A DNA stretch of 64,000 bases from an uncultured Gemmatimonadales bacterium (GTDB lineage Bacteria; Gemmatimonadota; Gemmatimonadetes; Longimicrobiales; RSA9): assembly GCA_963708135.1 (NCBI GenBank), contig OY970192.1:1792001-1856000 (forward strand). Reading direction: 5' to 3'. The notes beneath the pieces are model-generated. The model worked only from the letters and a program-made list of their open reading frames with translations, was not told where the DNA came from and searched no databases. Shown in pieces: positions 22,793 to 62,879 of the stretch (its first letter is position 1; the number at the start of each line of letters is the position of its first letter). The translations under genes and the position numbers were made by a program.

Positions 22793-22794
22793 AG

Positions 22795-22819: not shown

Positions 22820-22888
22820 ACCAGATCCCCCACCCCCGGATCGCGATTCGCCAGTAACCGCAACAACTATGAGCGGTTTCGACCGTCG

Positions 22889-26779: not shown

Positions 26780-26893
26780 ATCGGCTCCGTATATTTTTTG
26801 TCATCCCGCTGCTGCGCAGGCGCCCCACAGTCGTTCTCTGCATGGTGTCCCGCAGTGTCCCCAATCAGCTACACGATACGTGGACACGCCGAC

Positions 26894-29160: not shown

Positions 29161-29184
29161 CCGGCTTTCAATACAGCAGTCGAG

Positions 29185-29420
29185 CCTCCCTCCTCGTCGG
29201 CGACGTCGGCCGCTCCGACCTGCTCCTTCGGCGACCAGGCGCTCGACGTGCCGCCCTCGCCTCGCTCCTCCAGCGCGATGGCCGCGACGTGCGGCTCGTC
29301 ACCGGCGGCATGACCGACTGGCTGGCCCGGGGGTTCGCGGTGGCAAAGGGAACCGCGGCAGCTCAGGCTGGCGGCCACCAGTCAACGCAAACGCGCCGCG
29401 GCTCAGTTGCCGGACCTTAG
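29185..29420 (+). pseudogene. MBL-fold hydrolase scrap fused to a rhodanese C-terminal fragment
   Basis: SLLVGDVGRSDLL followed by AALASLLQRDGRDVRLVTGGMTDW, paralogous to 25265-25370. Confidence 0.7.
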
Positions 29421-31920: not shown

Positions 31921-32688
31921 CTAGAATGGGTATCCAATAACGAGGTCCGCCCGGCAGTCGTTAATTTGAGCGTGAACGTGCGACCGGATACATCTTTGAC
32001 TCGATTATCTGGTCGGCGGCAATATCACCGTCGTGGGCGCCGCAGGAAACAACAAGGGAGCGGACGCCTGTAATTGGTTCCCGGGATCGGAGCCAAGCGT
32101 GATCACTGTCGGATTCACGAACTCGAGCGATGTCGTCGATTCGAATTCGAATCAGGGAAGTTGCGTGGATCTCTTCGCCCCGGGAGCAGACATCGTCTCG
32201 GCGTGGGATACCGGAGACAACGCCACGCATACGCTGAGTGGCAGCTCACAGGCCGCCCCTCTGGTTGCCGGCGCCGCAGCCCTCTACTTGCAGGACCATC
32301 TCAGTGCGACGCCGTCGGAAGTAAAGAATGACCTGGTGGGCACGGCTACCAGCGGGCGGCTATCGGGAATCACCCTCCCCGGGACCCCGAATCTACTCCT
32401 GTACGCGCTACGGCCATCGCCGCTCTCGGTCTCGGTCACGGGACCAACCTACATCTCCGCGAAGGGCACCTATACCTTCACCGTGAGCTATTCGGGCTAC
32501 GTGTCGCCCACGATTGACTGGACGGAAAAGCCGTGCTATGCGGCCGGAGACGGCTTCTGCACGTGGCACGATCTCGGCGGCGGGACGACCCAGTGTCAAG
32601 GCCGGTTGAGAAGTTGACAGGTCCAACGGTTTAGAATTGGACACTTCCGTCGGTCTTGGCGCTAACGCGGCATGGGGGATCTCCTCTC

Positions 32689-34772: not shown

Positions 34773-35124
34773 TGGCGGAGCCCTCCGGTGCTCGGGAACG
34801 TCTTTAAGCTGACGCCCCGATTCTACGCACTGCGAGGGCTTCGTTCATCTCCCTGTCAACGTGGCCTCCCGCGCCTGCGGCGCTTCGGCCCTCGACTTCA
34901 CCTCCTCGACGGGAGTGTCCATTTTCAAACCGTCGCTCCTGTCCAGTTTACAACCGGTGGTGAGACCAGAACCGGGTCCTCGCCCCTGATTGCACGGTTG
35001 GATACGACCTCTACGAGATCCGCGCCACCGTAACCGATTCAGACGGGCTGTATGCCAGCGACACCCACGATGTGCATCTCTGCAACGCCCCCGCCCCGGT
35101 GCCCAGTTCGCCGGGAGAGGACTG

Positions 35125-35826
35125 ATGGGCGTCGCCTTGCAGTTCCTGGCCGCTCCCGCTCCGGCGAACCGCGGACGAACCGGGAAACCACGGCACCGGC
35201 GCTTTCTCGCCGCCTGTTCGGTCCTCATGTTTGCACTGCTCGCCGGGGCGGCGTGCGACCACTCACCGACTCGCCCTGCCGAGGAGCCGGACCTGAAGCC
35301 GGGGAAGCTCATCTACCAGTGGTGTCCCATCGACCAGACGGACTTCTGGCCATACGGCAAGCCGGCGGCGCCGACGGTCATCGTGGATGCGTTGCCAAGC
35401 CCGGTCCTCGAGTCTGGCCCGAATGCCGCACCATATTACCCTCTATCAGCCGAGCAGGAGGCCCGGATCACGGCACACGGTGCACGGATCCTGTACCGGT
35501 TCAACGCCAATATGGTACGTATCGAGGTCCCCACGGATTCGTTGCCGGTCATGGTGAAGGGTCCGCCCGACAGACCAGGCATTCTCGACGGCGTGCTTTC
35601 CGTCCCCGACACGCTGCACCACGACTATGTTTCCGAGCTCGTGTTCGACCACACCGTCACCAGCACCGACTCGTTACTCGTCTTGCGTCTGGGCGGTTGG
35701 CCGAAAAAGCGCGAGCCGGACTATCCAGTGCTCGACGCGATCATTCCCGACTCGATCGTGCCGGAGCTACGGAATCACGGCCTGATCCACTCCCTCGTGG
35801 ACTTCACAGGTTGCGGCGCAGTCTGA
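35125..35826 (+). CDS. Hypothetical lipoprotein, copy 2
   Basis: Identical to copy 1 in the 5' two-thirds, diverged in the 3' third. Confidence 0.75.
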   Translation: MGVALQFLAAPAPANRGRTGKPRHRRFLAACSVLMFALLAGAACDHSPTRPAEEPDLKPGKLIYQWCPIDQTDFWPYGKPAAPTVIVDALPSPVLESGPNAAPYYPLSAEQEARITAHGARILYRFNANMVRIEVPTDSLPVMVKGPPDRPGILDGVLSVPDTLHHDYVSELVFDHTVTSTDSLLVLRLGGWPKKREPDYPVLDAIIPDSIVPELRNHGLIHSLVDFTGCGAV

Positions 35827-35920
35827 CCGGCTTTAATAGCCAGGAGGCGCTCGACGTGCACGACGAGGGCCAGCGCGCACACACGAAGCGGAACGAATCC
35901 GAATCCAGGCGCACAGCGCC

Positions 35921-39765: not shown

Positions 39766-41032
39766 TCCGGAGGGCGGGCCGACGACGACGCGGGGGTCCG
39801 CCGCGTGTTCTACCGACCCTCCCGGCCCACCTCCGACGGACGCGCTCTCCTCGCCCTCTCACCCCTCCAGTTTCTGGAAGCACTTTCCCAGCTGATCCCG
39901 CCGCCCCGGGTTCACCGCCACCGCTACCACGGCGTTCTCGCCCCCAACGCACGGCTCCGGCCCCGGGTCGTCGCCCTCGAACGCGACGCAGAGGCCCACG
40001 CGGACGAGCGCCGCATCCTGCGCCTCTTCCAACGCCGCGGCCTCCTCGAGGAGCACACGGTGAACGACATGCTCACCTGGCAGGGCACCGGCGGCTTCAG
40101 CCTCGACGCCTCCGTCCGCATCCACGGCGCCGACCGGGCCGGCCGCGAGCGCCTCCTCCGCTACTGCGCCCGGCCGCCGTTTGCCCTCGATCGCCTGCGG
40201 ATCGAGCGTCAGTCCGGAGGGCGGGCCGACGACGACGCGGGGGTCCGCCGCGTGTTCTACCGACCCTCCCGGCCCACCTCCGACGGACGCGCTCTCCTCG
40301 CCCTCTCACCCCTCCAGTTTCTGGAAGCACTTTCCCAGCTGATCCCGCCGCCCCGGGTTCACCGCCACCGCTACCACGGCGTTCTCGCCCCCAACGCACG
40401 GCTCCGGCCCCGGGTCGTCGCCCTCGAACGCGACGCAGAGGCCCACGCGGACGAAGCCCACGGCGAGGGGCCCGGGGTCCACACCCACAACGAGCCCGCT
40501 ACCACCCTCACCGGCGCCGCCGCCCGCTCCCGCTGGGCCCAGCTCCTCGCCCGCATCTACGAGGTCTTCCCCCTCCGCTGCCCCGAGTGCGGATCGGACA
40601 TGCGCATCCTCGCTTTCCTCACCGACCCCGCGCCCGTGGGCGCCATCCTCCGACATCTCGACCTGCCCCATACCACACCGCCGCTCTCCCCCGCACGCGC
40701 TCCACCCCAAGTCGCACTCGCGCTCGACGCCGAGCCCCTCGCACCCGCCAATGCCCTGCCCCGCGACGACTTCGACCAGACGCCCGCGTTCGATCCGGCT
40801 GACCCCGAGCCCCTACCCGAGCTCGACCTCGACCAGACCCGCGGCGCCTGAACGGCCAGGTGCGCCCGGCAACCGCTACAGGCGCCAGGTCACACCCACA
40901 TCCGATGCCGAATCGACCGGAACCTCCACCCAATCCCGCTCGCCCGCCCATCACCCCCACCCTTGACCCGGCGAAACCACCCCGCCTATCCTACCGAAAG
41001 CAGCCGAAACGGCGTTTGGATTTCCTATCCCT
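39766..41032 (+). mobile_element. ISCR element, copy 3: 5'-truncated with an internal duplication, oriIS intact
   Basis: 39766-40007 is repeated within 40008-40851; the HUH and N-terminal Zn motifs are missing. Confidence 0.9.
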
Positions 41033-41262
41033 CACGATCCGTGCGTATTCCGGCCGAATCCGTCCAGTGATTCCGGTCGAAGCCGGCCACCGATTCCGGA
41101 CCATTCCGTCCACCCGTTCCGGAGCAATCCGTCCACCGATTCCGGGGATTCCGTCCTGCCATTCCGGCGGAATCCGTCCACCCTTGGGGGAGCGAAGCCG
41201 ACGCTGGATGACCTGAACCAGACCAGCCGCCACCTTGTGCGGGTCCTGAACCCGGAGGAGAG

Positions 41263-42834
41263 ATGGCGGCGGAGAGGTTGTCCATGCGGAAGATCAAGGA
41301 GGTGCTGCGGCTGAAGGCTGCAGGCCATGGGAACCGGGCGATCGCCCGGAGCCTGCGGATCGCGCACAGCACGGTCCGCGAGTACCTGAACCGGGCCGAG
41401 GCGGCGGAGCTGGGCTGGCCGCTGCCGGAGGGGCTGACGGAGGCGGAGCTCGAGGCCCGGCTTTTTCCGCCGCCGCAGCCGTCGAACGTGGCGCGTCCGC
41501 TGCCGGACTGGGCGGAGGTGCACCGGGAGCTGAAGTCGAAGAAGCGGAGCGGCGTCACGCTCCAGCTGCTCTGGCTCGAGTACAAGGAGGACCACCCGTA
41601 CGGGCTCCAGTACAGCCAGTTCTGCGAGCGGTACCGGCGGTGGCGGGGCGGGCTCGACCTGGTGCTCCGGCAGGAGCACCGCGCCGGGGAGAAGGTCTTC
41701 GTGGACTTCGCCGGCCAGACGGTGCCGGTGGTGGACCGGGGCACCGGGGAGATCCGCGAGGCCGAGATCTTCGTCGGGGTGCTGGGCGCCAGCAACTACA
41801 CCTACGCCGAAGCGTGCTGGAGCCAGGAGCTGCCCGAGTGGATCGGCGCGCACGTGCGCATGTACGAGTACTTCGGCGGGGTGCCGCAGCTCACGGTCCC
41901 CGACAACCTGAAGGCAGGGGTCCGCCACGCCTGCTACTACGAGCCGGACCTGAACCCGACGTATCACGAGTTGGCGGTGCACTACGGCACGGCCGTGCTG
42001 CCAGCCCGGGTCCGGAAGCCGAGGGACAAGGCGAAGGCGGAAGCGGGCGTGCTCCTGGTGGAGCGGTGGATCCTGGCCCGGCTCCGGAAGCTGACCTTCT
42101 TCAGCCTGGCCGAGCTGAACCGGGAGATCGCTCGTCTGCTGGAGCTCCTGAACGACCGGCCCTTCCAGAAGCTGGAGGGCAGCCGCCGCTCGCTCTTCGA
42201 GACGCTGGACCGGCCGGCGCTTCTCCCGCTCCCCGAGCAGCGCTACGAGTTTGCCCGCTGGAAGAAGGCCCGGGTCAACATCGACTACCACATCGATGTC
42301 CTCGGCCACTACTACAGCGTGCCCCACACCCTCGTCCGCCAGCAGGTGGACGTGCGCATCACCCGCACGAGCGTCGAGATCCTGCACTCCGGCCGCCGGG
42401 TGGCGGCGCATCTGCGGAGCCACCGCAAGGGTGGCTTCAGCACGGAGCCCGGACACCGGCCCAAGGCGCACCAGAAGCATCTCGAGTGGACGCCGTCGCG
42501 AATCGTCGCCTGGGCCGAGAAGACCGGGCCCGCCACGGGCGAGCTGGCCCGGCAGATCCTCGAGAGCAAGCCGCACCCGGAGCAGGGCTATCGCGCCTGC
42601 CTCGGTCTCCTGAGGCTCGGCGATCGACACTCTCCTGAAAGGCTCGAGGCCGCCTGCGCCCGCGCGTTGCGGATCGGCGGCGTCTCGTACCGCTCGGTCA
42701 AGTCCATCCTCCAGAGCGGACTCGACCGCCTCCCCCTGGAAGAGCAGGCGAGCCTCACCCTGCCCCAGAACCATGAACATCTGCGCGGCGGGACCTACTA
42801 CGCCGCCGCCGCCAACGGAGCCCTCTCATGCTGA
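41263..42834 (+). CDS. istA: IS21 transposase
   Basis: AGEKVFVDFAG, VPDNLK and PRDKAKAE motifs. Confidence 0.95.
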   Translation: MAAERLSMRKIKEVLRLKAAGHGNRAIARSLRIAHSTVREYLNRAEAAELGWPLPEGLTEAELEARLFPPPQPSNVARPLPDWAEVHRELKSKKRSGVTLQLLWLEYKEDHPYGLQYSQFCERYRRWRGGLDLVLRQEHRAGEKVFVDFAGQTVPVVDRGTGEIREAEIFVGVLGASNYTYAEACWSQELPEWIGAHVRMYEYFGGVPQLTVPDNLKAGVRHACYYEPDLNPTYHELAVHYGTAVLPARVRKPRDKAKAEAGVLLVERWILARLRKLTFFSLAELNREIARLLELLNDRPFQKLEGSRRSLFETLDRPALLPLPEQRYEFARWKKARVNIDYHIDVLGHYYSVPHTLVRQQVDVRITRTSVEILHSGRRVAAHLRSHRKGGFSTEPGHRPKAHQKHLEWTPSRIVAWAEKTGPATGELARQILESKPHPEQGYRACLGLLRLGDRHSPERLEAACARALRIGGVSYRSVKSILQSGLDRLPLEEQASLTLPQNHEHLRGGTYYAAAANGALSC

Positions 42835-43581
42835 CGCACCAGACCCTCGACCAGCTCCACGAGCTCCGCCTCACCGGCATGGCCCAGGCCCTGGAAGAAC
42901 AGAATGCGCATGCCCGACGTCGAGAGCCTCGCCTTCGACGACCGTCTGGCCCTCCTCCTGGAACGGGAGATCACCTTCCGCGACGACCGGCGCCTCACCC
43001 GGCTCCTCCAGGTGGCCAAGCTCCATCTTCAAGCCGCCATCGAGGACCTCGACTTCCGAAGCCCTCGAGGACTGGAGCGATCCCTCATCCTGCGCCTCTC
43101 CAGCGGCCAGTGGATCCGCGACCACCAGAGCGTCCTGATCTCCGGCGCCACGGGCACCGGCAAGAGCTTCCTGGCCTGCGCCCTCGGTCACAGCGCCTGC
43201 CGCCAGGGCCTGTCCACCCGCTACTACCGCTTCTCCCGGCTCCTCGGAGAGCTGGCTCTGGCCCGGGCCGACGGCTCCTACGCCAAGCTCCTCGACCGCC
43301 TGGCCAAGACCCAACTCCTCATCCTCGATGACTTCGGCCTCGCTCCACTCACCGACTCCGAGCGCCGTGATCTCCTCGAGGTCCTCGAAGACCGCTACGG
43401 CCGACGCGCCACCCTCGTCACCAGCCAGCTGCCCGTCGAGCACTGGCACGCGGTCATGGGAGACGCCACATTCGCCGACGCCATCCTGGATCGGCTCGTC
43501 CACAACGCCCACACCATCACCCTGAAAGGAGCATCCATGCGGCGGAAGAAGAATCAGACCCCCGCCGTCGCCGAGTCCTGA
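42828..43581 (+). pseudogene. istB: IS21 helper ATPase with a frameshift near 42905
   Basis: MLTHQTLDQL is in one frame; GATGTGKS and LILDDFG are in another. Confidence 0.88.
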
Positions 43582-43704
43582 ACACGCCAGCGTCGCTTCG
43601 CTCCGACCGGGTGGACGGCATGGACCGGAACGGGTGGACGGCTTGCGCCGGAACCGCTGGACGGCTTCCTCCGGAACTCGTGGACGGAATCACCGGAATA
43701 GGCA

Positions 43705-44197
43705 CGATCCGCCCGGACGAGCTGAGAGCGGCGTTCACCGCCGCCGGTGGATGGAGTATCGCCGAGCTGAGCGCGGAGCGCATCGAGACGCGATTTCACG
43801 ACAACGGCGCACCGGCCTGGTTGGCGACCATCCAAAGGATTTAGGCGTGCGTGGGCGCGCGCCGGCGGACCTGGCAGCGCCTCGGCGGACCCTCGCGCGT
43901 GCAGCACCGCCGAGCGGCCCTTGGTGGCGCCGGCGGCCTCCTCAGTCCTGCGGCGCCATCGGCAGCTCGCGCACGTGCCGGCCCGTGAGCGCGAACCAGG
44001 CGTTGGTGAGCGCCGGGGCGGCGGGTGGGAGGCCCGGCTCGCCGACCCCCCCCGGGTCCTCGCGGCTGTCCACGATGTGCACGTCGATCTCGGGCGCCTC
44101 CAGTGGAGCCGGCGGGAGTCGAACCCGCACCAGATCCCCCACCCCCGGATCGCGATTCGCCAGTAACCGCAACAACTATGAGCGGTTTCGACCGTCG
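43705..44197 (+). repeat. Duplicate of 22395-22888 (methyltransferase 3' end, IorB fragment, tmRNA-end copy)
   Basis: Near-identical sequence. Confidence 0.95.
44104..44128 (-). repeat. 25-bp duplicate of the tmRNA 3' end, copy 2
   Basis: Identical to 62515-62539. Confidence 0.95.
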
Positions 44198-46050: not shown

Positions 46051-46240
46051 GACGAGCTCACCGAGAGTATTTACATTTTGGATCGCCCAAGATATCGCCT
46101 CCACCTCAAACAAATGATGCGGGTGTTCTCAACAACTGGAAGCTAGAGGCAGTTAAGCAGCTTCAGACACTCATTGAAAAGGAATACGGAAAGACCTTGG
46201 AAACCCTTCTTATCCACCTTGCGAAGAGTTTGCATGAGTA
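46051..46240 (+). pseudogene. 3' fragment of an AT-rich hypothetical gene
   Basis: Open frame RAHREYLHFG...LAKSLHE* begins at the oriIS junction. Confidence 0.5.
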
Positions 46241-46294
46241 GCTATTCCTTCTATTGCCGCCTGAGGCAAAACACAAAATCATAGGGGAGGAAAC

Positions 46295-46681
46295 TTGAGC
46301 GATCGGGAGCAGGTTGTCGTAAAGACGTACAAGGGAAGGGAATCGAAAGCCGCAGAGCTGTTTCAAGAAGACGCAGCGAAAATGGCATTACAGGGTTACA
46401 TTCCGACATCGCAGAGTTGGGCTCCGGGTGCCTATGGGTGCGGCTCCTTCCTCTTCGCGCTGCTACTGTGCTTTGTCCTGATCGGATTCTTGGTTTTCAT
46501 TTACATGCTGCTGGTTAAGCCGGACGGAACACTTTCTGTAACGTACGAGCTGCGAATCGAAGTGCAAGGCTCGAAGCAATCTGCTCCAACCGCGGAAAAG
46601 ACATGCCCAAAGTGTGCGGAAAACGTAAAGGCGGCAGCTACTGTTTGTCGCTTCTGCGGACACAACTTCGAGCCGGCCTAA
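46295..46681 (+). CDS. Zinc-ribbon membrane protein (gene-cassette ORF)
   Basis: TM helix plus KTCPKCAE.VK..A.VCRFCG; ggagg RBS; stop codon lies inside the attC. Confidence 0.85.
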   Translation: MSDREQVVVKTYKGRESKAAELFQEDAAKMALQGYIPTSQSWAPGAYGCGSFLFALLLCFVLIGFLVFIYMLLVKPDGTLSVTYELRIEVQGSKQSAPTAEKTCPKCAENVKAAATVCRFCGHNFEPA

Positions 46682-46736
46682 CAAGGCCATGCAGGCGACG
46701 TCCGAAGACGCACGCGCCTGATGGCCGGCGTTAGGG
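46676..46736 (+). other. Integron attC site
   Basis: R'' gcctaac and R' gttagg; inner arms ggccatgcaggcg / cgcctgatggcc pair with one extrahelical G. Confidence 0.85.
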
Positions 46737-46894
46737 TTACAACAATGAAGCGTTCTCTCTGGAAACAAAGTCTTACCAAAAACTGGTGCCCTGCGTGGCC
46801 GTGCCCCGTTTGCCGAAAGGAGTCTGTAAAGCTTGTACCAAAATCACTTATATATAAAGAAAACGTCAATTCAAAACGAGCGCACAGCCATGAA

Positions 46895-48655
46895 CCTCCC
46901 GTATTCACCACGCGTAGGTTGAGCCGATTGAGCGCGTGATTTGGAATTCGGCGGCGGCGTGCGTGGCGCCCGGGCTGATTACGGGGACAGCCCCCCTTTC
47001 CCCCGGCGCGCCGCCGACGGCTCCGTGCTCCGATCGCTCCCCGCCCGAGAAGGCCTACGCTGGAGTGGGCAGGGCCAGGGCGGCGGGGGAGCCGCGGGCC
47101 GAGTAGCGCCGGCTCATTTCTCGCCAGAAGCGCTGCCACAGGTGCGCGCGGCCCGCGTCGATGACGAGCGTGAGTCGTCGGCCGCTCACCAGCACGCGTC
47201 CCGCCGCTTTGAGCACGAGTTGGCGGAAGCGCTGGCGGGTCATGACCTGACGTTCGCCGCACGAGACCAGTTCTGCGCCAGCTCTCAGCAGGTTGGCCGC
47301 GATGAGGCTCAGCAGCAGGCGCGCCTCGTTGGCGCCGAAGCTGTCGGTGTCGGGCTCGGGCGTGGCGACGCTCCGCCCGCGGTAGTGCTTCTTGGGCCGC
47401 GGCGCCGACGAGAGCGCCAGCGCCAGCGTGCTTTTCCAGTCCCCGAACTCCCGCTCGGCTTCTCCCCGCGCCCGGTAGCGCTCCAGCAGCGCCGGGCCGT
47501 CTACCTCTTCGGTGCTCGCGTTCGTGAGCAGGAAAAAATGGTCGAGGAACAGCTCCCCCTGCTCGTCCGAGCGCTCCAGCATCACGAGCACCACCCGGCG
47601 CGCATGGTCCCAGCGCCCGGCAGCATAGGTCAGCTCGTGCGTCCAGATCCGACCTTCGGCCGGCGGGTGTCCAGGCGGCCGCTTCAGGTACGGCGCCGCG
47701 AGTCTCTCCAGGCGTGCATTCCCACGCAGCCGGGCCACGTAGCGCACGCCCTCGTCCTCCAGCGTGGCCAGCAACTCGTTCTCCGGGAATCCCGCATCCA
47801 TGCGCAGCCACACCTGCTCCGCCTGCGTCTTCGCCCAGAGCACCGCGGGGACCACAAAGCCCAGCGCGCCTTGCGCCGTGTGCGCGTTTCCCTCTCGCAG
47901 CTCGGCCGCCAGGAAGTCTCCCAACTCCCAGCGCAGCACCAGCGGGTGGTAGCAGCAGCAGCCATAGTGCGCGTTCCACGAGCTGCCCGGCTGCAGCCCG
48001 TGCACTTCGACCGGCAGCGAATCCAGATCCAGCGTGACCTCCGCAACGCGCGGCGCGTTCCGGCCCCGCCGCCGCTCCGCACCCCGCAGCAGGAGCGTGG
48101 AAAGGCCCTGCCGGTTTCCCGGGTCGGCCAGCACCGCCAGGAGCCGCGACAGGGTTGGCTGAGAGGCCAGCCCGGAGGCCGCGCCCGCAGCCCCACCCCG
48201 CACCGGCGCCGTCCCCCGGCGCCGCGACACGGCCACGCGCAGCGCCGGATCGGCGCGCAGCAGGTCCGCATCCCGCTGGTCCGTCCATCCCTGCGCCAGC
48301 AGGAGCACCTGCGTGAGCATCAGCTCGAGGAAGTCGTGCGTGATCCGCGCGGGGTCGCGCGGGTCGTGCAGGTGGTGGTGGACCAGCGCCGGGAAGCCCA
48401 GCCGCTCCAGCAGCGCACGCAACAGCACCGCGCCCGCGTCCGAGGTCAGCCGCTCCGGTCGCGCCTCCACGCCCATCGAACGGTTGAAATCCAGCCGGAA
48501 AAGTGTACCTTGTTCTTCACCCATGGCGTGTTTGTCGTGTGGTCCGGAAGGATGGTTTGGTTTGCACCCCCATCTCACGGTCACACAGGCAGATGCGCCA
48601 TGGGCGCTTACGCCCTACACAACCCCTCCACTAACCCGCTCGTGAATACGGCAGG
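46895..48655 (-). mobile_element. IS1380-family element, copy 1
   Basis: IRs cct(c/g)ccgtattcac; 5-bp TSD atgaa. Confidence 0.95.
47055..48524 (-). CDS. IS1380 transposase
   Basis: LTSDAGA, LASQPTLSR, LDLDS, RMDAGF and YRARGEAE motifs. Confidence 0.92.
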   Translation of the reverse strand: MGEEQGTLFRLDFNRSMGVEARPERLTSDAGAVLLRALLERLGFPALVHHHLHDPRDPARITHDFLELMLTQVLLLAQGWTDQRDADLLRADPALRVAVSRRRGTAPVRGGAAGAASGLASQPTLSRLLAVLADPGNRQGLSTLLLRGAERRRGRNAPRVAEVTLDLDSLPVEVHGLQPGSSWNAHYGCCCYHPLVLRWELGDFLAAELREGNAHTAQGALGFVVPAVLWAKTQAEQVWLRMDAGFPENELLATLEDEGVRYVARLRGNARLERLAAPYLKRPPGHPPAEGRIWTHELTYAAGRWDHARRVVLVMLERSDEQGELFLDHFFLLTNASTEEVDGPALLERYRARGEAEREFGDWKSTLALALSSAPRPKKHYRGRSVATPEPDTDSFGANEARLLLSLIAANLLRAGAELVSCGERQVMTRQRFRQLVLKAAGRVLVSGRRLTLVIDAGRAHLWQRFWREMSRRYSARGSPAALALPTPA

Positions 48656-48684
48656 ATGAAGCATGGGACCCTGATTGGATTGAA

Positions 48685-50445
48685 CCTCCCGTATTCACCA
48701 CGCGTAGGTTGAGCCGATTGAGCGCGTGATTTGGAATTCGGCGGCGGCGTGCGTGGCGCCCGGGCTGATTACGGGGACAGCCCCCCTTTCCCCCGGCGCG
48801 CCGCCGACGGCTCCGTGCTCCGATCGCTCCCCGCCCGAGAAGGCCTACGCTGGAGTGGGCAGGGCCAGGGCGGCGGGGGAGCCGCGGGCCGAGTAGCGCC
48901 GGCTCATTTCTCGCCAGAAGCGCTGCCACAGGTGCGCGCGGCCCGCGTCGATGACGAGCGTGAGTCGTCGGCCGCTCACCAGCACGCGTCCCGCCGCTTT
49001 GAGCACGAGTTGGCGGAAGCGCTGGCGGGTCATGACCTGACGTTCGCCGCACGAGACCAGTTCTGCGCCAGCTCTCAGCAGGTTGGCCGCGATGAGGCTC
49101 AGCAGCAGGCGCGCCTCGTTGGCGCCGAAGCTGTCGGTGTCGGGCTCGGGCGTGGCGACGCTCCGCCCGCGGTAGTGCTTCTTGGGCCGCGGCGCCGACG
49201 AGAGCGCCAGCGCCAGCGTGCTTTTCCAGTCCCCGAACTCCCGCTCGGCTTCTCCCCGCGCCCGGTAGCGCTCCAGCAGCGCCGGGCCGTCTACCTCTTC
49301 GGTGCTCGCGTTCGTGAGCAGGAAAAAATGGTCGAGGAACAGCTCCCCCTGCTCGTCCGAGCGCTCCAGCATCACGAGCACCACCCGGCGCGCATGGTCC
49401 CAGCGCCCGGCAGCATAGGTCAGCTCGTGCGTCCAGATCCGACCTTCGGCCGGCGGGTGTCCAGGCGGCCGCTTCAGGTACGGCGCCGCGAGTCTCTCCA
49501 GGCGTGCATTCCCACGCAGCCGGGCCACGTAGCGCACGCCCTCGTCCTCCAGCGTGGCCAGCAACTCGTTCTCCGGGAATCCCGCATCCATGCGCAGCCA
49601 CACCTGCTCCGCCTGCGTCTTCGCCCAGAGCACCGCGGGGACCACAAAGCCCAGCGCGCCTTGCGCCGTGTGCGCGTTTCCCTCTCGCAGCTCGGCCGCC
49701 AGGAAGTCTCCCAACTCCCAGCGCAGCACCAGCGGGTGGTAGCAGCAGCAGCCATAGTGCGCGTTCCACGAGCTGCCCGGCTGCAGCCCGTGCACTTCGA
49801 CCGGCAGCGAATCCAGATCCAGCGTGACCTCCGCAACGCGCGGCGCGTTCCGGCCCCGCCGCCGCTCCGCACCCCGCAGCAGGAGCGTGGAAAGGCCCTG
49901 CCGGTTTCCCGGGTCGGCCAGCACCGCCAGGAGCCGCGACAGGGTTGGCTGAGAGGCCAGCCCGGAGGCCGCGCCCGCAGCCCCACCCCGCACCGGCGCC
50001 GTCCCCCGGCGCCGCGACACGGCCACGCGCAGCGCCGGATCGGCGCGCAGCAGGTCCGCATCCCGCTGGTCCGTCCATCCCTGCGCCAGCAGGAGCACCT
50101 GCGTGAGCATCAGCTCGAGGAAGTCGTGCGTGATCCGCGCGGGGTCGCGCGGGTCGTGCAGGTGGTGGTGGACCAGCGCCGGGAAGCCCAGCCGCTCCAG
50201 CAGCGCACGCAACAGCACCGCGCCCGCGTCCGAGGTCAGCCGCTCCGGTCGCGCCTCCACGCCCATCGAACGGTTGAAATCCAGCCGGAAAAGTGTACCT
50301 TGTTCTTCACCCATGGCGTGTTTGTCGTGTGGTCCGGAAGGATGGTTTGGTTTGCACCCCCATCTTACGGTCACACAGGCAGATGCGCCATGGGCGCTTA
50401 CGCCCTACACAACCCCTCCACTAACCCGCTCGTGAATACGACAGG
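48685..50445 (-). mobile_element. IS1380-family element, copy 2
   Basis: Same IRs as copy 1; 5-bp TSD ttgaa. Confidence 0.95.
48845..50314 (-). CDS. IS1380 transposase
   Basis: Protein identical to copy 1. Confidence 0.92.
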   Translation of the reverse strand: MGEEQGTLFRLDFNRSMGVEARPERLTSDAGAVLLRALLERLGFPALVHHHLHDPRDPARITHDFLELMLTQVLLLAQGWTDQRDADLLRADPALRVAVSRRRGTAPVRGGAAGAASGLASQPTLSRLLAVLADPGNRQGLSTLLLRGAERRRGRNAPRVAEVTLDLDSLPVEVHGLQPGSSWNAHYGCCCYHPLVLRWELGDFLAAELREGNAHTAQGALGFVVPAVLWAKTQAEQVWLRMDAGFPENELLATLEDEGVRYVARLRGNARLERLAAPYLKRPPGHPPAEGRIWTHELTYAAGRWDHARRVVLVMLERSDEQGELFLDHFFLLTNASTEEVDGPALLERYRARGEAEREFGDWKSTLALALSSAPRPKKHYRGRSVATPEPDTDSFGANEARLLLSLIAANLLRAGAELVSCGERQVMTRQRFRQLVLKAAGRVLVSGRRLTLVIDAGRAHLWQRFWREMSRRYSARGSPAALALPTPA

Positions 50446-51054
50446 TTGAATACACATTTACCGCCTGGGCGGAATGCGGACATCAATCTTGTAAACAGCA
50501 GTTTGCAATAGCTGGCGTAGGTGGCGTCTCACCTGAACAGACTGAGGACGGGTTTGAGTGGGAGGACTACTTCGCACCTCAAATCTGCCAACCCATGCCA
50601 GATATGTTGGATTTTCCAAAAAAATGTCCGGACGAAGTCAAAGAAGAACTCCGAGCGGCATTTGGGCTCTTCTGGTCGCACCAAGCTGCCTGTGCTGGTC
50701 GGATTCGCGTTTCCCTTGAGTGCCTGATGAACCACTTAGGTTAGGCATACCAAAACGAAAGAAAGATAAGAACGGAAAATATTTTGACTTATCTTATCTC
50801 TCCATGCGCGCATTGATGTCTTTGCAAAAGCAGAGCCGAATGTAGGTTCACATCTAATGGCGCTGAAATGGTTAGGAAACGCTGGAAGTCACAATGGAGA
50901 AGTCAGGAAAGACGACTTGCTGGATGCGTTCGAAATTATGGAGCATGCGCTAGTTGAGATCATAGACAAGCGCTCGGCCAAAGTTGCTGCCCTAGCCAAA
51001 AAAATTACAAAAAAACATGGTCGATAGAAACTCTACCTTGTCACTCAACCGGAC

Positions 51055-53033: not shown

Positions 53034-53345
53034 ATGGCGAAGAAGAAGATCTCGGAAGCAGCCGTGGCGCCCTTCGCGCCAACCGGGGCGCCGCACACCG
53101 TGCAGGCCAGCACGTTCAAGGCGACGTGTCTCGAATTGATGGACGAAATCGAAGCGAGCGGATTCGAGGTCGTCGTCACCAAGCACGGCCGCCCCGTGGT
53201 GAAGGTGGGACCGGTGGAGCCGAGCGTCCCTTCTCCGTTGGGGTTTCTGCGCGGGACCGTCGTGGATGAGGGAGACTTGGTGAGCCCCGACCACGACGCA
53301 TGGAGCGAGGCGGTGGCGGACCCGCTCCACACGGATCGGAAGTAG
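53034..53345 (+). CDS. Phd/YefM-family antitoxin
   Basis: ASTFKATCLELMDE...VVVTKHGRPVVK. Confidence 0.88.
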   Translation: MAKKKISEAAVAPFAPTGAPHTVQASTFKATCLELMDEIEASGFEVVVTKHGRPVVKVGPVEPSVPSPLGFLRGTVVDEGDLVSPDHDAWSEAVADPLHTDRK

Positions 53346-53776
53346 TGGCGACCGTGCGCGCGGTGCGCGAGCGGCCCCAGCGCCGGCCGCGGCGCGCGCG
53401 CGCACCAAAGCGCGTGGCGGGTTCGGTGCTCTGGCGCGCGGTGGAGGAACCGGAGCGCGAAGACGCCCTGCTCCTGGACACGCACGTGTGGCTGTGGACG
53501 CTCGCCGGCACCACGGAGCGACTGGCCGCGCAGGCGGTCGCGCTCGTGCAGTCAGCCGCGGCCGCCGGCCGCCTCTACGTGAGCGACATTTCCTTCTGGG
53601 AGGTGTCGCTCAAGGCATCGAAACGGAAGCTGACGCTGGTGATCGATCCCACCCTCTGGCTCGAGCGCGCCGCGCGGGCACCGGGCATTCGCGCGCTGCC
53701 GCTCGCGCGCGAGGTGCTGATCCAGAGCACGCGCCTTCCGGGCGCTATGCACGGCGATCCCGCCGACCGCATGCTC
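53345..53776 (+). pseudogene. vapC: VapC/PIN toxin, 3'-truncated
   Basis: LLDTHVWLW, SDISFWE and HGDPADRML, then an abrupt junction; the final 'LVT.D' motif is missing. Confidence 0.82.
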
Positions 53777-53860
53777 TGCAGTGGACATTGCGCGCGGAGG
53801 ATAAGGTAGGCGCCACCTACAGGCTCACGGACACGAATCCCGTCCGCAGACATTAGCGAA

Positions 53861-53893
53861 AGCCCCCCGACCAACGGTCGGGGGGTTTTTTTT
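53861..53893 (+). terminator. Rho-independent terminator
   Basis: ccccccgacc-aac-ggtcgggggg stem-loop followed by a T8 tract. Confidence 0.85.
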
Positions 53894-53905
53894 AAAAAAT
53901 ATTTT

Positions 53906-54811
53906 CAGTACTGTCCGGTTAAGCTGAGATGATGATGCCGTAACGGATTGCTACGTGGTGCGTTACGACGTTTTGGTTGCCGCACCGATTTGAACTTCGC
54001 TGCTGCGCCGCTATCCTGCCCGGACCCCCCGGCCGGAGTGGCGCATGAATCCCGGAAGCACGGTTTTCTCACAGGTGATGGCCCACGCATCTCGCTTCGC
54101 GCTCGATCGGTGCATCCGCCGCTACCACGGCAACCGGAGGGTCCGACGTTTCTCGTGTCGGGACCAGTTCCTCGCCATGGCCTTTGCCCAGCTCACCTAC
54201 CGGGAGAGCCTGCGGGACCTCGAGGCCACCCTCGGGGCGGCCCCCGAGAAGCTGTACCATCTTGGCTTCCGTTCGCCGCTCTCTCGCAGCACGCTCGCCG
54301 ATGCGAACGAGAATCGCGACTGGCGCATCTACGCCGATTTCGCTCAACGCCTGATCGCAGACGCGCGTCGGCTCTACGCCGACGACACGTTGGGGATCGA
54401 GCTCACGAACACCGTCTACGCGCTGGATTCCACCACGATCGACCTGTGTTTGGACCAACGACGTCGCGCTGCCCGCCGTTACCGTGGCCGAGCTCTACCG
54501 CCTGCGGTGGCAGATCGAGCTCTTCTTCAAATGGATCAAGCAGCACCTCAGGATCAAGCGCTTCTTCGGCACGAGCGCGAACGCTTTGCGCACGCAGATC
54601 TGGATCGCGATCAGCGTTTACGTCCTCGTCGCGATCGTCCGCAAGCGGCTCCGGATCGAGCGCGAACTCTACACAATTCTACAGATCCTGAGCGTCTATG
54701 CGTTCGAGAAAGCCCCTCTCGCACAAGTACTTACGCGTTCGGCCTACACCCCCGAAGTCCCCTCCGATCGTAACCAGTTGTCGCGCTTCAACTTATAACC
54801 GGACACTACTG
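53906..54811 (+). mobile_element. IS4 element, copy 2, with an internal deletion of about 416 bp
   Basis: Same ends as 25458-26779; 9-bp TSD aaatatttt; deletion junction near 54451. Confidence 0.95.
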
Positions 54812-54826
54812 AAATATTTTCTAAAT

Positions 54827-55507
54827 TTACTTTTCTTCCTCGCCTTTTTCTTTCTTTTCTTTCTTCTCTTCCTTTTCTTCGCCTTCCTCGCCTTCGGCTT
54901 CCTCTTTGCCTTCCTTCTTCACGCCCTCAACGGCTTCTTCGAGATCTACCTCGGTCGGCTGGGCCAATTCTGCTTCGAGCTCTTCTTCGGACTTCGGCGG
55001 CTGGACGGCGGCGACGGTCATCTCCGGATCATCCACCAGAATCTCCACCTTACTGTGGTCCACCGGCAAATCCTTGACGCGGATGGCGTCCTCGAAATTT
55101 TTCAAAGCCGAAATATCCACGACAATCTCCGAAGGCAGGTCGCCCGGCAAGCTCTCGACTTCGACTTCATAAAGAGTCGGCACGAAAGTGCCCTGCAGTT
55201 CTTTGACCGCCGGAGATTCGCCGACGAATTCGATCGGCACGGTGGCCGTCAGTTTTTCCGCCATATTCACCTGGTAAAAATCCACGTGCGTAATCTGGCC
55301 TCGGGTGATGTGCTTCTGAATGTCTTGGATCAAGACCTTGACCGGCTCGGTCTCCCCCACTTGCAGGCCGACGATAGTGCTCTCGCCGGCGTCACGATAG
55401 ATTTTTTCAAAATCACCCGCCGGCACGGACAAGGAACGCGCCTCGATCCCGTGCCCGTACAGAACCCCGGGGATATAGCCGGCGTGGCGAAGTCCTTTCG
55501 CTTTTTC
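54827..55507 (-). pseudogene. rplY: 50S ribosomal protein L25 (Ctc-type), 5'-truncated, foreign composition
   Basis: GYIPGVLYG, HVDFYQV, VPIEFVGESPAVK, LPGDLP and an acidic/Lys tail; no start codon. Confidence 0.9.
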
Positions 55508-55854
55508 TGGGCGCGCGCCGGCGGACCTGGCAGCGCCTCGGCGGACCCTCGCGCGTGCAGCACCGCCGAGCGGCCCTTGGTGGCGCCGGGCGGCCTCCTC
55601 AGTCCTGCGGCGCCATCGGCAGCTCGCGCACGTGCCGGCCCGTGAGCGCGAACCAGGCGTTGGTGAGCGCCGGGGCGGCGGGTGGGAGGCCCGGCTCGCC
55701 GACCCCCCCCGGGTCCTCGCGGCTGTCCACGATGTGCACGTCGATCTCGGGCGCCTCCAGTGGAGCCGGCGGGAGTCGAACCCGCACCAGATCCCCCACC
55801 CCCGGATCGCGATTCGCCAGTAACCGCAACAACTATGAGCGGTTTCGACCGTCG
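55508..55854 (+). repeat. Third copy of the IorB-fragment / tmRNA-end segment (matches 22542-22888)
   Basis: Near-identical sequence; contains the 25-bp tmRNA end at 55761-55785. Confidence 0.95.
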
Positions 55855-57707
55855 GGGTGTGGGCCGCCAGGTCCGGCGCTGACGGCCGGCGCGTTGTCCC
55901 GCTCCGCCATGGTGGTGCCCCGGGTCTCGTCGAACCCTTCGGGGCATGCCCACCGTCGCACGCCCCCGATCCGTTTGGGTCCCGCCGCAGGCACAGGCGC
56001 ACCGCCCAGGGCACTCCGCAACGCCACCCGCCCAGGCCGCCGTTTACCGCCGACGACGGCCCACGGCCACGCCCCTCTACCCCATCGTCCAGCACCACAT
56101 CGAGGGCTTCCTGGCCCGGGCCGCCGAAGCCGATCCCTGGGGCGAGGGCGTGGCCGGCTGGGTCGAGGCCGACTTCCGGGCCTACCTCCGCTGCGGCATC
56201 CTGGCCCACGGCTTCGCCCGCGTCCGCTGTGACGACTGCGCCGCCGAGCGCCTCGTCGCCTTCTCCTGCAAGGGCCGCGGCGTCTGCCCCTCCTGCAACG
56301 CCCGCCGGATGGTCGAGGTCGCCGCGCACCTGAACGACGCCGTCCTGCCGCCGCTCCCGATCCGCCAATGGGTCCTCTCCGTCCCGAAGCGGATCCGCCC
56401 CTTCTTCCACCACGATCCCGCCCTTGCCGGCGCCGTGCTCCGGATCCTGCTCCGGGCCGTCCGCACCCGCCTGCGTCACGGCAGTCCCGGTGCCGGCCCG
56501 GACGCGCAGATCGGCGCCGTCTCCTTCCTCCACCGCTTCGGCTCCGCCCTCAATCCCCACTTCCACTTCCACGTCGTGGTTCTCGATGGCGTCTTCACCG
56601 GGACCGTGGACGGCGAGGTCCGCTTCGATGAGGCGACCCACTTTTCCGCCGACGACGCCTCCGCCCTCACGCCCGTCCTCCAGCGCCGCATCCTGCGCCT
56701 CTTCCAACGCCGCGGCCTCCTCGAGGAGCACACGGTGAACGACATGCTCACCTGGCAGGGCACCGGCGGCTTCAGCCTCGACGCCTCCGTCCGCATCCAC
56801 GGCGCCGACCGGGCCGGCCGCGAGCGGCTCCTCCGCTACTGCGCCCGGCCGCCGTTTGCCCTCGATCGCCTGCGGATCGAGCGTCAGTCCGGAGGGCGGG
56901 CCGACGACGACGCGGGGGTCCGCCGCGTGTTCTACCGACCCTCCCGGCCCACCTCCGACGGACGCGCCCTCCTCGCCCTCTCACCCCTCGAGTTTCTGGA
57001 AGCACTTTCCCGACTGATCCCGCCGCCCCGGGTTCACCGCCACCGCTACCACGGCGTTCTCGCCCCCAACGCACGGCTCCGGCCCCACGTCGTCGCCCTC
57101 CAACGCGACGCAGAGGCCCACGCGGACGAAGCCCACGGCGAGGGGCCCGGGGTCCACACCTACAACGAGCCCGCTACCACCCTCACCGGCGCCGCCGCCC
57201 GCTCCCGCTGGGCCCAGCTCCTCGCCCGCATCTACGAGGTCTTCCCCCTCCGCTGCCCCGAGTGCGGCTCGCAGATGCGCATCATCGCTTTCCTCACCGA
57301 CCCCGCGCCCGTGGGCGCCATCCTCCGACATCTCGACCTGCCCCACACCACACCGCCGCTCTCCCCCGCACGCGCTCCACCCCAAGCCGCACTCGCGCTC
57401 GACGCCGAGCCCCTCGCACCCGCCGATGCCCTGCCCCGCGACGACTTCGACCAGACGCCCGCGTTCGATCCGGCTGACCCCGAGCCCCTACCCGAGCTCG
57501 ACCTCGACCAGACCCGCGGCGCCTGAACGGCCAGGTGCGCCCGGCAACCGCTACAGGCGCCAGGTCACACCCACATCCGATGCCGAATCGACCGGAACCT
57601 CCACCCAATCCCGCTCGCCCGCCCATCACCCCCACCCTTGACCCGGCGAAACCACCCCGCCTATCCTACCGAAAGCAGCCGAAACGGCGTTTGGATTTCC
57701 TATCCCT
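55855..57707 (+). mobile_element. ISCR element, copy 5
   Basis: Near-identical to the other copies; oriIS ends at 57707. Confidence 0.92.
55946..57526 (+). CDS. ISCR-type HUH transposase
   Basis: Same motifs as copy 1. Confidence 0.92.
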   Translation: MPTVARPRSVWVPPQAQAHRPGHSATPPAQAAVYRRRRPTATPLYPIVQHHIEGFLARAAEADPWGEGVAGWVEADFRAYLRCGILAHGFARVRCDDCAAERLVAFSCKGRGVCPSCNARRMVEVAAHLNDAVLPPLPIRQWVLSVPKRIRPFFHHDPALAGAVLRILLRAVRTRLRHGSPGAGPDAQIGAVSFLHRFGSALNPHFHFHVVVLDGVFTGTVDGEVRFDEATHFSADDASALTPVLQRRILRLFQRRGLLEEHTVNDMLTWQGTGGFSLDASVRIHGADRAGRERLLRYCARPPFALDRLRIERQSGGRADDDAGVRRVFYRPSRPTSDGRALLALSPLEFLEALSRLIPPPRVHRHRYHGVLAPNARLRPHVVALQRDAEAHADEAHGEGPGVHTYNEPATTLTGAAARSRWAQLLARIYEVFPLRCPECGSQMRIIAFLTDPAPVGAILRHLDLPHTTPPLSPARAPPQAALALDAEPLAPADALPRDDFDQTPAFDPADPEPLPELDLDQTRGA

Positions 57708-58069
57708 CCGGCTTCCTCCACATCGGGGCGTGGCAATCATCCGTTCACGCGAAGCCGCAAAGCGCCGAAGGCAGTACACCGGTGTGTTGGGAACCTGCGT
57801 ACCGACGGCCCGTCCTGTGGCATGGATCCCAGCCATACCCGCCGAGTTCGGTTTTCTAGGTTGCGGGATTCGCGCCTTCGGCCCGTGCTGCCTTCGCGTG
57901 AACCGAGTGGAAGGACGCCCCCGAAGCCCGCGGTTGGCCGAGGGATGTCGCTCCGCCTCCTCCGCCACTCCGCGCGAACCGCGGATGTGTGAAGCGGGAC
58001 GAAGCGGGAACATGGATGCGTGCGCCGCACGGTTGCATCCTTGGCGGGACCCACTTCCGGAGAATCTTC

Positions 58070-62514: not shown

Positions 62515-62879
62515 TGGAGCCGGCGGGAGTCGAACCCGCGTCCGCGAATCGATCCCTCAGTGCATCTACGTGCGTAGTCCACCGTTCTCAGTTTCTCGCT
62601 CCCTCATCGGCCGGTGGACGGCCCCGTCGGGAACCAGCCTCGCTGTGTCTCATCCGGCCGCGGCAAGGCGGCACGACCGGACCAGCCCGATTTGTCGATG
62701 CCTCTGGTCACGCCTCGGGCCCGGCCCGTCCAGAGACAGGTTGCGAAAGGTCAGACCTTACGCAGCCAGCGCCATGTTTGAGTTGGCACTTGTGATGTTT
62801 TCCCGCTGGTTTTACGAGGGCACGGGTCCTCGGCACGCGACACCGACTTCACGAAACACGTCGAAACCAGGTCGGCCCC
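62515..62879 (-). ncRNA. ssrA: tmRNA
   Basis: 5' GGGGCCGACCTGGTTTCGAC, 3' GGTTCGACTCCCGCCGGCTCCA, about 365 nt; tag ORF ANSNMALAA* at 62758-62787. Confidence 0.97.

Follow-up and report, generated by a model that had tools for sequence, protein, structure and literature searches.

The window, by which we mean the whole stretch of 64,000 nucleotides that was analysed, belongs to the chromosome of a soil bacterium placed in the Longimicrobiales (Gemmatimonadota) by the names of the matches to its rplY. This complete host gene lies elsewhere, in the prs-rplY-pth setting, and the window contains a piece of a second such gene next to an insertion sequence. The question is where this piece came from, how it arrived and whether it still does anything. 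The earlier note, made from the letters alone, had taken it for a Patescibacteria-like ribosomal protein L25 fragment next to an ISCR flank; every element that it described was found, in place or a few bases off (Table 1). We propose that positions 53777-55507, after subtraction of an inserted IS4-family element, form a block of 814 bp that is likely to be chromosomal DNA of a Doudnabacteria-like member of the Patescibacteria (CPR), now inert in the Longimicrobiales chromosome. In addition to the final ~226 codons of rplY, the block has a hairpin and the end, 25 codons long, of a reading frame that converges on the gene; it sits in a 45-kb region dense with insertion sequences and cut genes.

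Table 1. Features of the locus, with positions in the window, strand and basis of the assignment
Feature	Positions	Strand	Basis
Host antitoxin gene of Phd/YefM type, partner of the cut PIN gene and upstream of it	53034..53345	+	PhdYeFM_antitox
PIN-domain (vapC-like) toxin gene, 3' end cut after ...DPADRML	53300..53776	+	Pfam, X1 contig
Distal part of the foreign block: open tail, hairpin, left 9-bp duplication	53777..53904	.	sequence, fold
IS4-family insertion sequence (DUF4372 + DDE_Tnp_1), internally deleted	53905..54812	+	Pfam, copies, ends
Right copy of the 9-bp target duplication AAATATTTT	54813..54821	.	sequence
Foreign rplY (bL25/CTC) fragment	54827..55507	-	Pfam, alignment, trees, composition
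Accessory 'upstream module' of IS91-family copies A, B and C	55508..55854	+	common left end
Core IS91-family element (copy A)	55855..57708	+	Pfam, copy comparison

The rplY fragment and its affinity

The fragment comprises 226 codons (54830-55507) followed by a TAA stop at 54827-54829. Pfam detected the Ribosomal_L25p domain (PF01386) with an E value of 4.1e-20 and 72.5 bits against a cut-off of 23.6, the match spanning profile positions 12-82 of 82 (10-82 in a second Pfam run). The Ribosomal_TL5_C domain (PF14693) is complete (E 6.2e-19, positions 1-84 of 84), and an acidic tail is present at the C-terminus. The same two domains and tail are found in bL25/CTC proteins such as the products of the host rplY and of B. 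subtilis ctc; unlike these, the fragment lacks the start codon and the first ~22 residues, as revealed by alignment with 17 homologues, in agreement with the truncation that the earlier note had described. The native start is absent, the DNA upstream being the IS91 module, and the fragment lies outside the prs-rplY-pth setting shared by the host copy and B. subtilis. In the same alignment, no internal stop or frameshift was found across the 226 codons; an intact frame of this length could indicate selection instead of youth.

The AT-richer codons remarked on from the letters are borne out by the composition. The fragment has 55.5% GC and a GC3 of 0.67, compared to 71% and 0.96 for the host rplY and 72% GC for the genome, in which only 14 of 15,558 intervals of 700 bp have a GC content of 56% or less. 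The fragment shares 35% identity with the host rplY product, and 30-41% with the L25 of 58 out of 60 Gemmatimonadota relatives, the other two giving no match.

An unbiased search of 5.8 billion proteins yielded best matches that are 69, 61 and 58% identical to the fragment, and ten of the twelve listed matches whose source name gives an organism are Patescibacteria. Among GTDB species genomes, the best 80 of 591 confirmed matches fall in CPR-labelled or unreliably labelled bins (0.7-1.1 Mb in the five bins checked), the ranking being biased towards CPR as the peptide pattern used for this search is not matched by host L25. In the order of the Doudnabacteria genome G061, 118 of 121 genomes encode an L25 with 41-58% identity to the fragment along most of its length, and one split copy reaches 58-63%. 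Identity to named Bacillota, Actinomycetota, Pseudomonadota and Bacteroidota records is 25-37%. A metagenome scan whose rows were taken up by matches to the low-complexity pattern EEKEEKKE gave at least 14 relatives, the best at 48% identity, and no donor context.

Three trees placed the fragment in a clade of 13 rows (100/99), whose sole reliably named member is a single metagenome-assembled genome, Candidatus Doudnabacteria RIFCSPHIGHO2_02_FULL_46_11. Within this clade the fragment pairs with the protein P0003 (100/99; 100/98 in the third tree), the 69% match, which is encoded on a 5.7-kb contig in ENA. In the third tree all 20 CPR-named rows, picked by similarity to the fragment, share one side of a 94/89 branch with this clade, and the Gemmatimonadota lie outside together with the named non-CPR references, which number only eight; the split was recovered in 100% of 200 bootstrap trees. 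A phylogeny and a comparison with the host gene had been suggested by the earlier note as checks, and both agree with its Patescibacteria-like assignment: the fragment stands among the CPR L25 proteins, divided from the Gemmatimonadota by a 100/99 branch, and is distinct from the separate, complete host copy. Judged by its sequence, the fragment is foreign and CPR-like, and Doudnabacteria-like within the CPR. As the best match is only 69% identical, no specific donor is named.

A source in a non-CPR lineage, or passage through an intermediate carrier (plasmid, phage or other bacterium) instead of direct transfer from a Patescibacteria cell, appears unlikely. In its favour, the closest matches do not exceed 69% identity and one match at 53% is labelled Methylomirabilota, and the GC content of the fragment is higher than the 48% of the nearest named relative's locus. 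In addition, the IS91-family element is native to Gemmatimonadota, so that any IS91 step would have taken place in a Gemmatimonadota replicon, perhaps not this chromosome. However, the Methylomirabilota-labelled protein falls on the CPR side of the third tree, where it pairs with a Doudnabacteria protein (100/97), and loci in CPR-labelled genomes go up to 58-61% GC. Signs of a carrier were not seen either, as none of 26 pattern matches in IMG/VR encodes a relative and the matches in phage and plasmid records are at most 38% identical, all from named non-CPR organisms. The CPR origin that we favour is compatible with an intermediate Gemmatimonadota carrier.

The presence of several CPR pieces in the region was also considered, and was ruled out for the low-GC interval 46051-46890. 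Of its 120 listed matches, three carry an organism name (Accumulibacter, Nitrospinae and Obscuribacterales), and all three are outside the CPR.

Junctions and insertion sequences

At the left junction, the block abuts a toxin-antitoxin pair of which the toxin gene is cut. The antitoxin matches PhdYeFM_antitox with an E value of 1.1e-5, under the curated cut-off. The PIN reading frame (53300-53809) matches the Pfam PIN profile with an E value of 1.1e-7 at positions 2-96 of 120 only. A contig of soil run X1, which may be the source sample, carries a near-identical vapC allele that covers 53576-53776 with two differences and diverges directly after 53776, continuing with different letters but still in frame. 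The cut vapC that the earlier note had placed near 53776 is thus confirmed by both the profile and the allele.

The distal part of the block starts with an open tail of 25 codons on the + strand (53778-53852; stop at 53853-53855). It is followed at about 53864-53886 by a hairpin with a 10-bp G+C stem and then T8 on the + strand, the neighbouring terminator of the earlier note. A simple terminator scan missed this hairpin, which was folded separately; the fold of 53850-53900 has a dG of -27.4 kcal/mol and a z of -5.7. In the sense direction of L25, A8 comes before the stem and only a weak U tract after it. At the Doudnabacteria locus L003, to which the tail and hairpin were compared, the downstream genes are unrelated. 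The interval 53777-53904 occurs once in the genome. It is continuous with 54822-55507, as indicated by the 9-bp duplication of the IS4 copy.

This IS4 copy separates the rplY fragment from the hairpin. Family membership is given by DDE_Tnp_1 and DUF4372 in a full copy (Pfam), inverted ends and a duplication of fixed length. The copy in the block has ends formed by inverted CAGTACTGTCCGG... and is bordered by a perfect 9-bp duplication, AAATATTTT, at 53896-53904 and 54813-54821. Seven other copies in the genome, among them the one at 25458-26780 of the window, match it with 99-100% identity, and perfect 9-bp duplications were found in 7 of the 7 IS4 copies that have both ends. Its length is 908 bp compared to ~1323 bp for the full element: positions 1-548 and 549-908 align to full copies, which have ~416 extra bases of the transposase gene in between. 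The earlier note was right that this is the IS4 found at 25458 with a perfect target duplication, and its description of the copy has to be corrected for the internal deletion. Its argument that the fragment once resided in a cell where this IS4 was active is sound, given the identity among copies and the regular duplications. The insertion of this host IS4-family element, which separated the stop codon from the hairpin, postdates the arrival of the block, and the internal loss of ~416 bases is later still.

At the right junction, homology among the IS91-family copies starts exactly at 55508. Copy D and the element of the relative G032 are both without the 347-bp module (55508-55854) and begin at the position equivalent to 55855. 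The transposase reading frame (55946-57526, 526 residues) matches Y2_Tnp (E 3.3e-23) and Zn_Tnp_IS91 (E 1.7e-17) in Pfam. The right end at 57708, which may resemble the oriIS of ISCR elements, is conserved across all five copies. The left and right ends differ from each other and do not form terminal inverted repeats; next to copies A, B and C no target duplication could be seen, nor was there a constant target tetranucleotide beside the right ends. Relatives of the element, with 67-93% nucleotide identity, are found in many genomes of the host family and order. Of the join to an 'ISCR upstream module' at 55508 in the earlier note, the junction stands, whereas the element is IS91-family by Pfam and the module is accessory and not part of the core. 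Within the module, a 45-nt look-alike of the tmRNA 3' end at 55758-55802 (- strand) scores 21.3 bits in Rfam, below the gathering score of 47. A frame of 52 residues (55602-55757, - strand), perhaps similar to the end of a molybdopterin oxidoreductase, gave no Pfam match.

The junctions also bear on whether CPR reads were misjoined into a Gemmatimonadota contig by chimera formation or contamination, which we consider very improbable. The genome is apparently metagenome-derived, with an estimated contamination of 3.14%, and parts of it are present in run X1. No listed contig of runs X1-X3 bridges 53776/53777 or 55507/55508, so that the joins rest on the assembly and the anatomy of the insertion sequences, and X1 has the intact vapC allele in place of the 53776 join. 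Over 53400-56100, no contig of these runs crosses the IS4 deletion point, 53777-53854 and 54856-55037 are uncovered, and X2 and X3 gave only distant IS4 relatives. However, a chimera would need two independent false joins. The IS4 copy in the block, nearly or fully identical to the other genome copies, has its proper duplication on both low-GC flanks, whereas a repeat-driven misjoin would fall inside the insertion sequence without reproducing a duplication. On the other side, the block meets the exact common end of a family-specific IS91 unit. In addition, a 385-nt contig of X1 is identical to 55052-55436, with a depth of 5 that is about equal to those of the flanks (5.6 and 4.5), and this run shows the DNA in no other context.

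Proposed history of the block

We propose a history in which a larger foreign segment would have entered a Gemmatimonadota replicon by illegitimate integration, the block being its probable leftover. The IS91-family unit of 2.2 kb, module plus core, would then have inserted into rplY at about codon 22. Two routes could lead from there to the present arrangement. One is one-ended transposition, in which rolling-circle replication reading past the terIS side would have mobilised the 814 bp together with the IS91 copy and left both next to the cut vapC. The other is a loss of the 5' part of rplY through recombination or deletion between the five IS91 copies, which lie on the same strand.

In two published sources, terIS is located upstream of the transposase gene, and failed termination, at a reported 1-14%, mobilises adjacent DNA (PMC13181058, PMC13393415). 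An in-window precedent for such read-through is provided by copy B, which holds 149-155 bp of the 3' end of the methyltransferase gene that flanks copy C, abruptly joined to the right end of copy E. The rplY fragment was possibly moved in this way. Had the IS91 unit with its cargo just inserted into vapC, the remainder of this gene would be expected after 57708; it is absent there in every frame, and it is not elsewhere in the genome either, where the 30-letter continuation taken from the X1 allele has no match. Either route therefore needs at least one extra rearrangement.

Ribosomal function, including 5S rRNA binding in the 50S subunit, is unlikely for the truncated L25 as predicted from its sequence, since the native start and the first ~22 residues, part of the Ribosomal_L25p domain, are missing. 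The rplY fragment is most likely a non-functional remnant of horizontal transfer. That it was retained as a working protein, for example in a stress role like that of CTC or as an L25 C-terminal-domain product made from an internal start, is scarcely credible: the uninterrupted frame, the complete TL5_C domain with its acidic tail and the gene call on record (P0002, 201 residues, internal TTG start) would fit such a role, but the called product is without 47 residues of the N-terminal domain, no sigma-70-like promoter was found by a scan of 53600-55700, the in-frame sequence 5' of the fragment is antisense IS91 DNA, the GC3 indicates little adaptation to the host, an insertion sequence lies between gene and hairpin, and the same truncated gene was found in none of the 60 relatives searched.

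Known systems and biological meaning

The element at the right junction resembles IS91, IS1294 and ISCR1/2, for which one-ended transposition is known, in its Y2 HUH transposase, zinc-binding N-terminal domain and two unlike ends, and in the lack of a visible target duplication at copies A, B and C. Foreign or flanking DNA is found upstream of the transposase gene, the side on which terIS lies in the cited sources and on which adjacent DNA is mobilised (PMC13181058, PMC13393415). Unlike in those cases, the cargo here is inert and part of a ribosomal protein gene, not a gene for resistance or catabolism, the host is a Gemmatimonadota bacterium from soil, the right ends are not accompanied by a constant target tetranucleotide, and the transposition is one that we infer.

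To our knowledge, transferred DNA seldom includes parts of core ribosomal protein genes, and few documented transfers run from Patescibacteria to ordinary bacteria. For groundwater, Gios et al. (2025, mSystems) predicted 29 transfers in which Patescibacteria passed genes to other organisms (PMC12455944). The likeness lies in CPR acting as gene donors to unrelated community members; those transfers concern whole genes and were deduced by software across metagenome-assembled genomes, whereas the present case is a truncated core gene with both junctions visible, in a single-contig genome of a phylum that the consulted part of that study does not name.

The junctions, the host's own gene and the later insertion-sequence events are all in one contig, and the locus would thus provide a clean, datable case of CPR DNA in a Gemmatimonadota chromosome. 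In addition, an IS91-family element of a non-clinical phylum is seen here to accumulate short neighbouring pieces: the module of 347 bp, the end of the methyltransferase gene and perhaps the rplY fragment. Knowledge of ribosomes and of IS91 mechanics is unchanged. The finding is mainly useful as a lead on possible encounters in soil between this Longimicrobiales population and a Doudnabacteria-like one. That the fragment is a trace of physical contact, left by a Doudnabacteria-like CPR epibiont that lives or once lived on this Longimicrobiales lineage and whose lysed chromosome was the source of the DNA, is a decidedly doubtful reading; if true, it would give the first host lead for a soil CPR lineage.

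The rplY fragment and the L25 of the host

The window covers G000:C1:1792001-1856000 of the host genome, a single contig of 5.45 Mb with a GC content of 72%. The earlier note described a truncated and AT-richer rplY in it, and both features were confirmed. In Pfam, the fragment matches positions 12-82 of the 82-position Ribosomal_L25p profile (E 4.1e-20) and the whole of Ribosomal_TL5_C (E 6.2e-19; see table). Alignment with 17 homologues revealed that it lacks about the first 22 residues of the family and is colinear from there through to the acidic tail, free of frameshifts; the in-frame sequence upstream is antisense IS91-family DNA only. The fragment has a GC content of 55.5% and a GC3 of 0.67, compared to 71% and 0.96 for the host's own rplY. 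A GC content of 56% or less was found in only 14 of 15,558 700-bp windows of the genome, and the genome has only 22 segments of 58% or less, of which three lie within the window.

Coordinates of the features (window positions unless a contig is named)
Feature	Position	Strand	GC	Remarks
rplY (bL25/CTC) fragment	54830-55507	-		226 residues, stop-free; Pfam
Host's own complete rplY	G000:C1:880683-881369			between prs and pth
IS4-family element	53905-54812			DUF4372 + DDE_Tnp_1 (Pfam)
347-bp accessory module	55508-55854, 43852-44197, 22542-22888			IS91 copies A, B, C
tmRNA 3'-end look-alike	55758-55802	-		45 nt
ssrA	62515-62879			4.8 kb past copy A
Methyltransferase 3' end	43700-43851, 22387-22541			at copies B, C
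IS21	41041-43699
Partial IS91 copy E with the duplication preceding it	39766-41033
Low-GC piece	46051-46890		53%	directly after right end of copy B
Tandem DDE_Tnp_1_4 insertion sequences	46891-48660, 48681-50450			99.8% alike
DUF4145-domain gene piece	50451-51050		51%	frameshifted, spread over three reading frames
Subtilase gene pieces with Inhibitor_I9 propeptide	26847-30236, 32027-32593, 34966-35838		62-65%

The host rplY product is 35% identical to the fragment, and its own closest organism-named relatives are from Longimicrobiales or Gemmatimonadota (55-68% identity). Sixty relatives from the host's family or order, among them the unpublished genomes G015, G016, G019 and G038, were compared: in 58 of them L25 has 30-41% identity to the fragment, and a second copy resembling the fragment was found in none of the 60.

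Phylogenetic position of the fragment

In a search of 5.8 billion proteins, the top matches (69, 61 and 58% identity) were metagenome proteins without a name. Among the matches listed, 12 carried an organism name: ten Patescibacteria (CPR), one Methylomirabilota and one 'bacterium'. In a scan of GTDB species genomes, the best 80 of 591 confirmed matches were from CPR-labelled or unreliably labelled bins, with a Candidatus Doudnabacteria at the top (57%); this ranking is biased, as the peptide pattern used does not fit the host L25. The bin labels 'Gammaproteobacteria', 'Bdellovibrionales' and 'Saccharibacteria' were distrusted, since all five genomes checked are 0.7-1.1 Mb. In the order to which the Doudnabacteria genome G061 belongs, 118 of 121 genomes have an L25, 41-58% identical over most of the fragment, and one split copy there reaches 58-63%. 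Named non-CPR L25 from plasmid and phage records is 25-38% identical.

Three L25 trees were computed with LG+C20+F+G4, a quick one of 98 rows and careful ones of 58 and 51 rows. The two smaller trees leave out lower-ranked CPR loci, and loci L061-L082 are absent from every tree. The 51-row tree was built without five of the ten Gemmatimonadota rows and includes eight named references (three Bacillota, one Actinomycetota, two Alphaproteobacteria, one Gammaproteobacteria and one Bacteroidota). All three trees paired the fragment with its 69% match, P0003 (100/99 with 58 rows, 100/98 with 51, and an SH-aLRT of 99 in the quick tree). A clade of 13 rows encloses the pair, with 100/99 in each careful tree and an SH-aLRT of 99 in the quick one; it includes the L25 of Candidatus Doudnabacteria RIFCSPHIGHO2_02_FULL_46_11, identical to the protein P0011. 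In the 51-row tree, one side of a 94/89 branch, present in 100% of 200 bootstrap trees, held the fragment together with all 20 CPR-named rows, whose selection by similarity to the fragment limits the test. Here three Doudnabacteria-labelled rows form the sister group of the clade with the fragment, a weakly supported placement (86/79), and the Methylomirabilota-labelled L25, probably misbinned, pairs with a Doudnabacteria protein (100/97). The Gemmatimonadota L25 form a separate group (100/99). The protein search and phylogeny called for by the earlier note thus agree with its view that the fragment is Patescibacteria-like, and set it apart from the host L25. These data support foreign, Patescibacteria-like housekeeping DNA, with the nearest protein at 69% identity.

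Insertion sequences around the block and proposed routes to the present arrangement

The region from 12.7 to 57.7 kb is dense with insertion sequences (five IS91-family, two IS21, two IS4, a tandem DDE_Tnp_1_4 pair and others) and contains cut genes for PPK2, subtilase pieces, M20 peptidase and PIN. The subtilase pieces are repeated, diverged (87-94% identity) and interspersed with IS elements; the DUF4145 piece is flanked by the tandem pair and the cut M20 peptidase gene. The low-GC piece beside IS91 copy B holds an ORF (46295-46681) whose product, a zinc-ribbon membrane protein of the UPF0547 type, has numerous relatives in metagenomes, at identities of up to 79%. A CPR origin of this piece was rejected, because the three organism-named of 120 matches listed (Accumulibacter, Nitrospinae, Obscuribacterales) are all non-CPR; the region therefore gathers DNA of several sources.

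The IS4-family element beside rplY has ends CAGTACTGTCCGG... and is flanked on both sides by AAATATTTT. As claimed earlier, it is the same IS4 as at 25458 (99-100% identical to other genome copies, including 25458-26780) with a 9-bp target duplication, but about 416 internal bases are absent. Perfect 9-bp duplications were found at all seven genome copies having both ends. Excision in silico joins 53777-53904 and 54822-55507 into one 814-bp block with the 5'-less rplY, its stop codon, a hairpin (10-bp G+C stem, folding dG -27.4 kcal/mol, z -5.7) and, on the + strand, a 25-codon open tail pointing at the hairpin. The terminator claimed beside rplY is present, but as its T8 run lies 3' of the hairpin on the + strand, it fits the convergent tail better than rplY.

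The genome has five IS91-family copies (A-E; transposase Y2_Tnp + Zn_Tnp_IS91 by Pfam), all of them in this region and on the same strand. Relatives at 67-93% nucleotide identity occur in many genomes of the host family and order, in a search including unpublished G015, G016, G019 and G038, indicating an element native to the host lineage. Copy D and a copy in the relative G032 start at the equivalent of 55855, with ten more bases shared leftwards, so the 347 bp preceding it in copies A, B and C are accessory. This module contains the tmRNA look-alike (Rfam 21.3 bits, below the gathering score). Four variants of copy A recur in the divergent copy C, and a cluster of eight others at 56827-57101 is private to A; as the copies are mosaics, exchange among them has occurred. 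Copy B is accompanied by a piece of 149-155 bp from the 3' end of the methyltransferase gene next to copy C. The left end of this piece directly adjoins the right end of partial copy E, and IS21 inserted later at this join. The piece looks like a product of read-through (one-ended) transposition plus tandem insertion. A 242-bp internal transposase duplication (39766-40007 = 40213-40454) precedes copy E.

The available parts of two published accounts place terIS upstream of the transposase gene and give failed termination as 1-14%, with adjacent DNA mobilised (PMC13181058; PMC13393415). As the rplY block adjoins copy A on this side, and given the published read-through and the methyltransferase piece of copy B, we propose two routes of roughly equal weight. 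A forerunner of copy A inside a foreign rplY-bearing segment would have taken 814 bp along by read-through, the unit being dropped at the present site. Alternatively, the foreign segment would already have been resident when an IS91 unit inserted into it, the remainder being lost by recombination or deletion between IS91 copies on the same strand. Neither route alone accounts for the loss of the vapC 3' end.

Outer junctions and meaning of the remnant

Both joins claimed, with the IS91-family upstream module at 55508 and with a cut vapC near 53776, were placed there by homology. Homology to the other IS91-family copies begins exactly at 55508. On the left, the PIN/vapC ORF matches its Pfam profile to position 96 of 120, and a 261-nt contig from X1, a soil metagenome run holding parts of the host genome, spans 53576-53776 with two differences and then diverges in frame. 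Since this contig continues with other letters, the vapC-derived sequence ends at 53776. The X1 continuation has no match anywhere in the host genome, and no vapC-like sequence was found 3' of copy A. The X1 allele, with two differences in 201 nt and intact beyond 53776, points to a related strain that lacks the junction, or to strain heterogeneity within the sample. Another X1 contig (385 nt, depth 5; flank depths 5.6 and 4.5) is identical to 55052-55436, and X1 may be the source sample; no X1 sequence bridges either outer junction. An assembly chimera, with CPR reads wrongly joined into a Gemmatimonadota contig, is very improbable on anatomical grounds, as it requires two false joins, the low-GC block is interrupted by an IS4 of the host with a regular target duplication, and on its opposite side the block meets the IS91 unit precisely at the end shared by the copies.

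The DNA may have passed from CPR directly into the host chromosome or through another Gemmatimonadota replicon. A CPR epibiont as its source, a proposal whose whole basis is the taxonomy of the fragment, appears unlikely. We found nothing specific in print on a Gemmatimonadota-Patescibacteria host link, and claim no absence of one; 29 transfers out of Patescibacteria were predicted earlier in groundwater, according to the available part of that study (PMC12455944). The rplY block is most likely an inert remnant of a transferred gene within an IS-rich region, one more case of a kind already known, and its main, moderate interest is as a lead on contact between CPR and their hosts.
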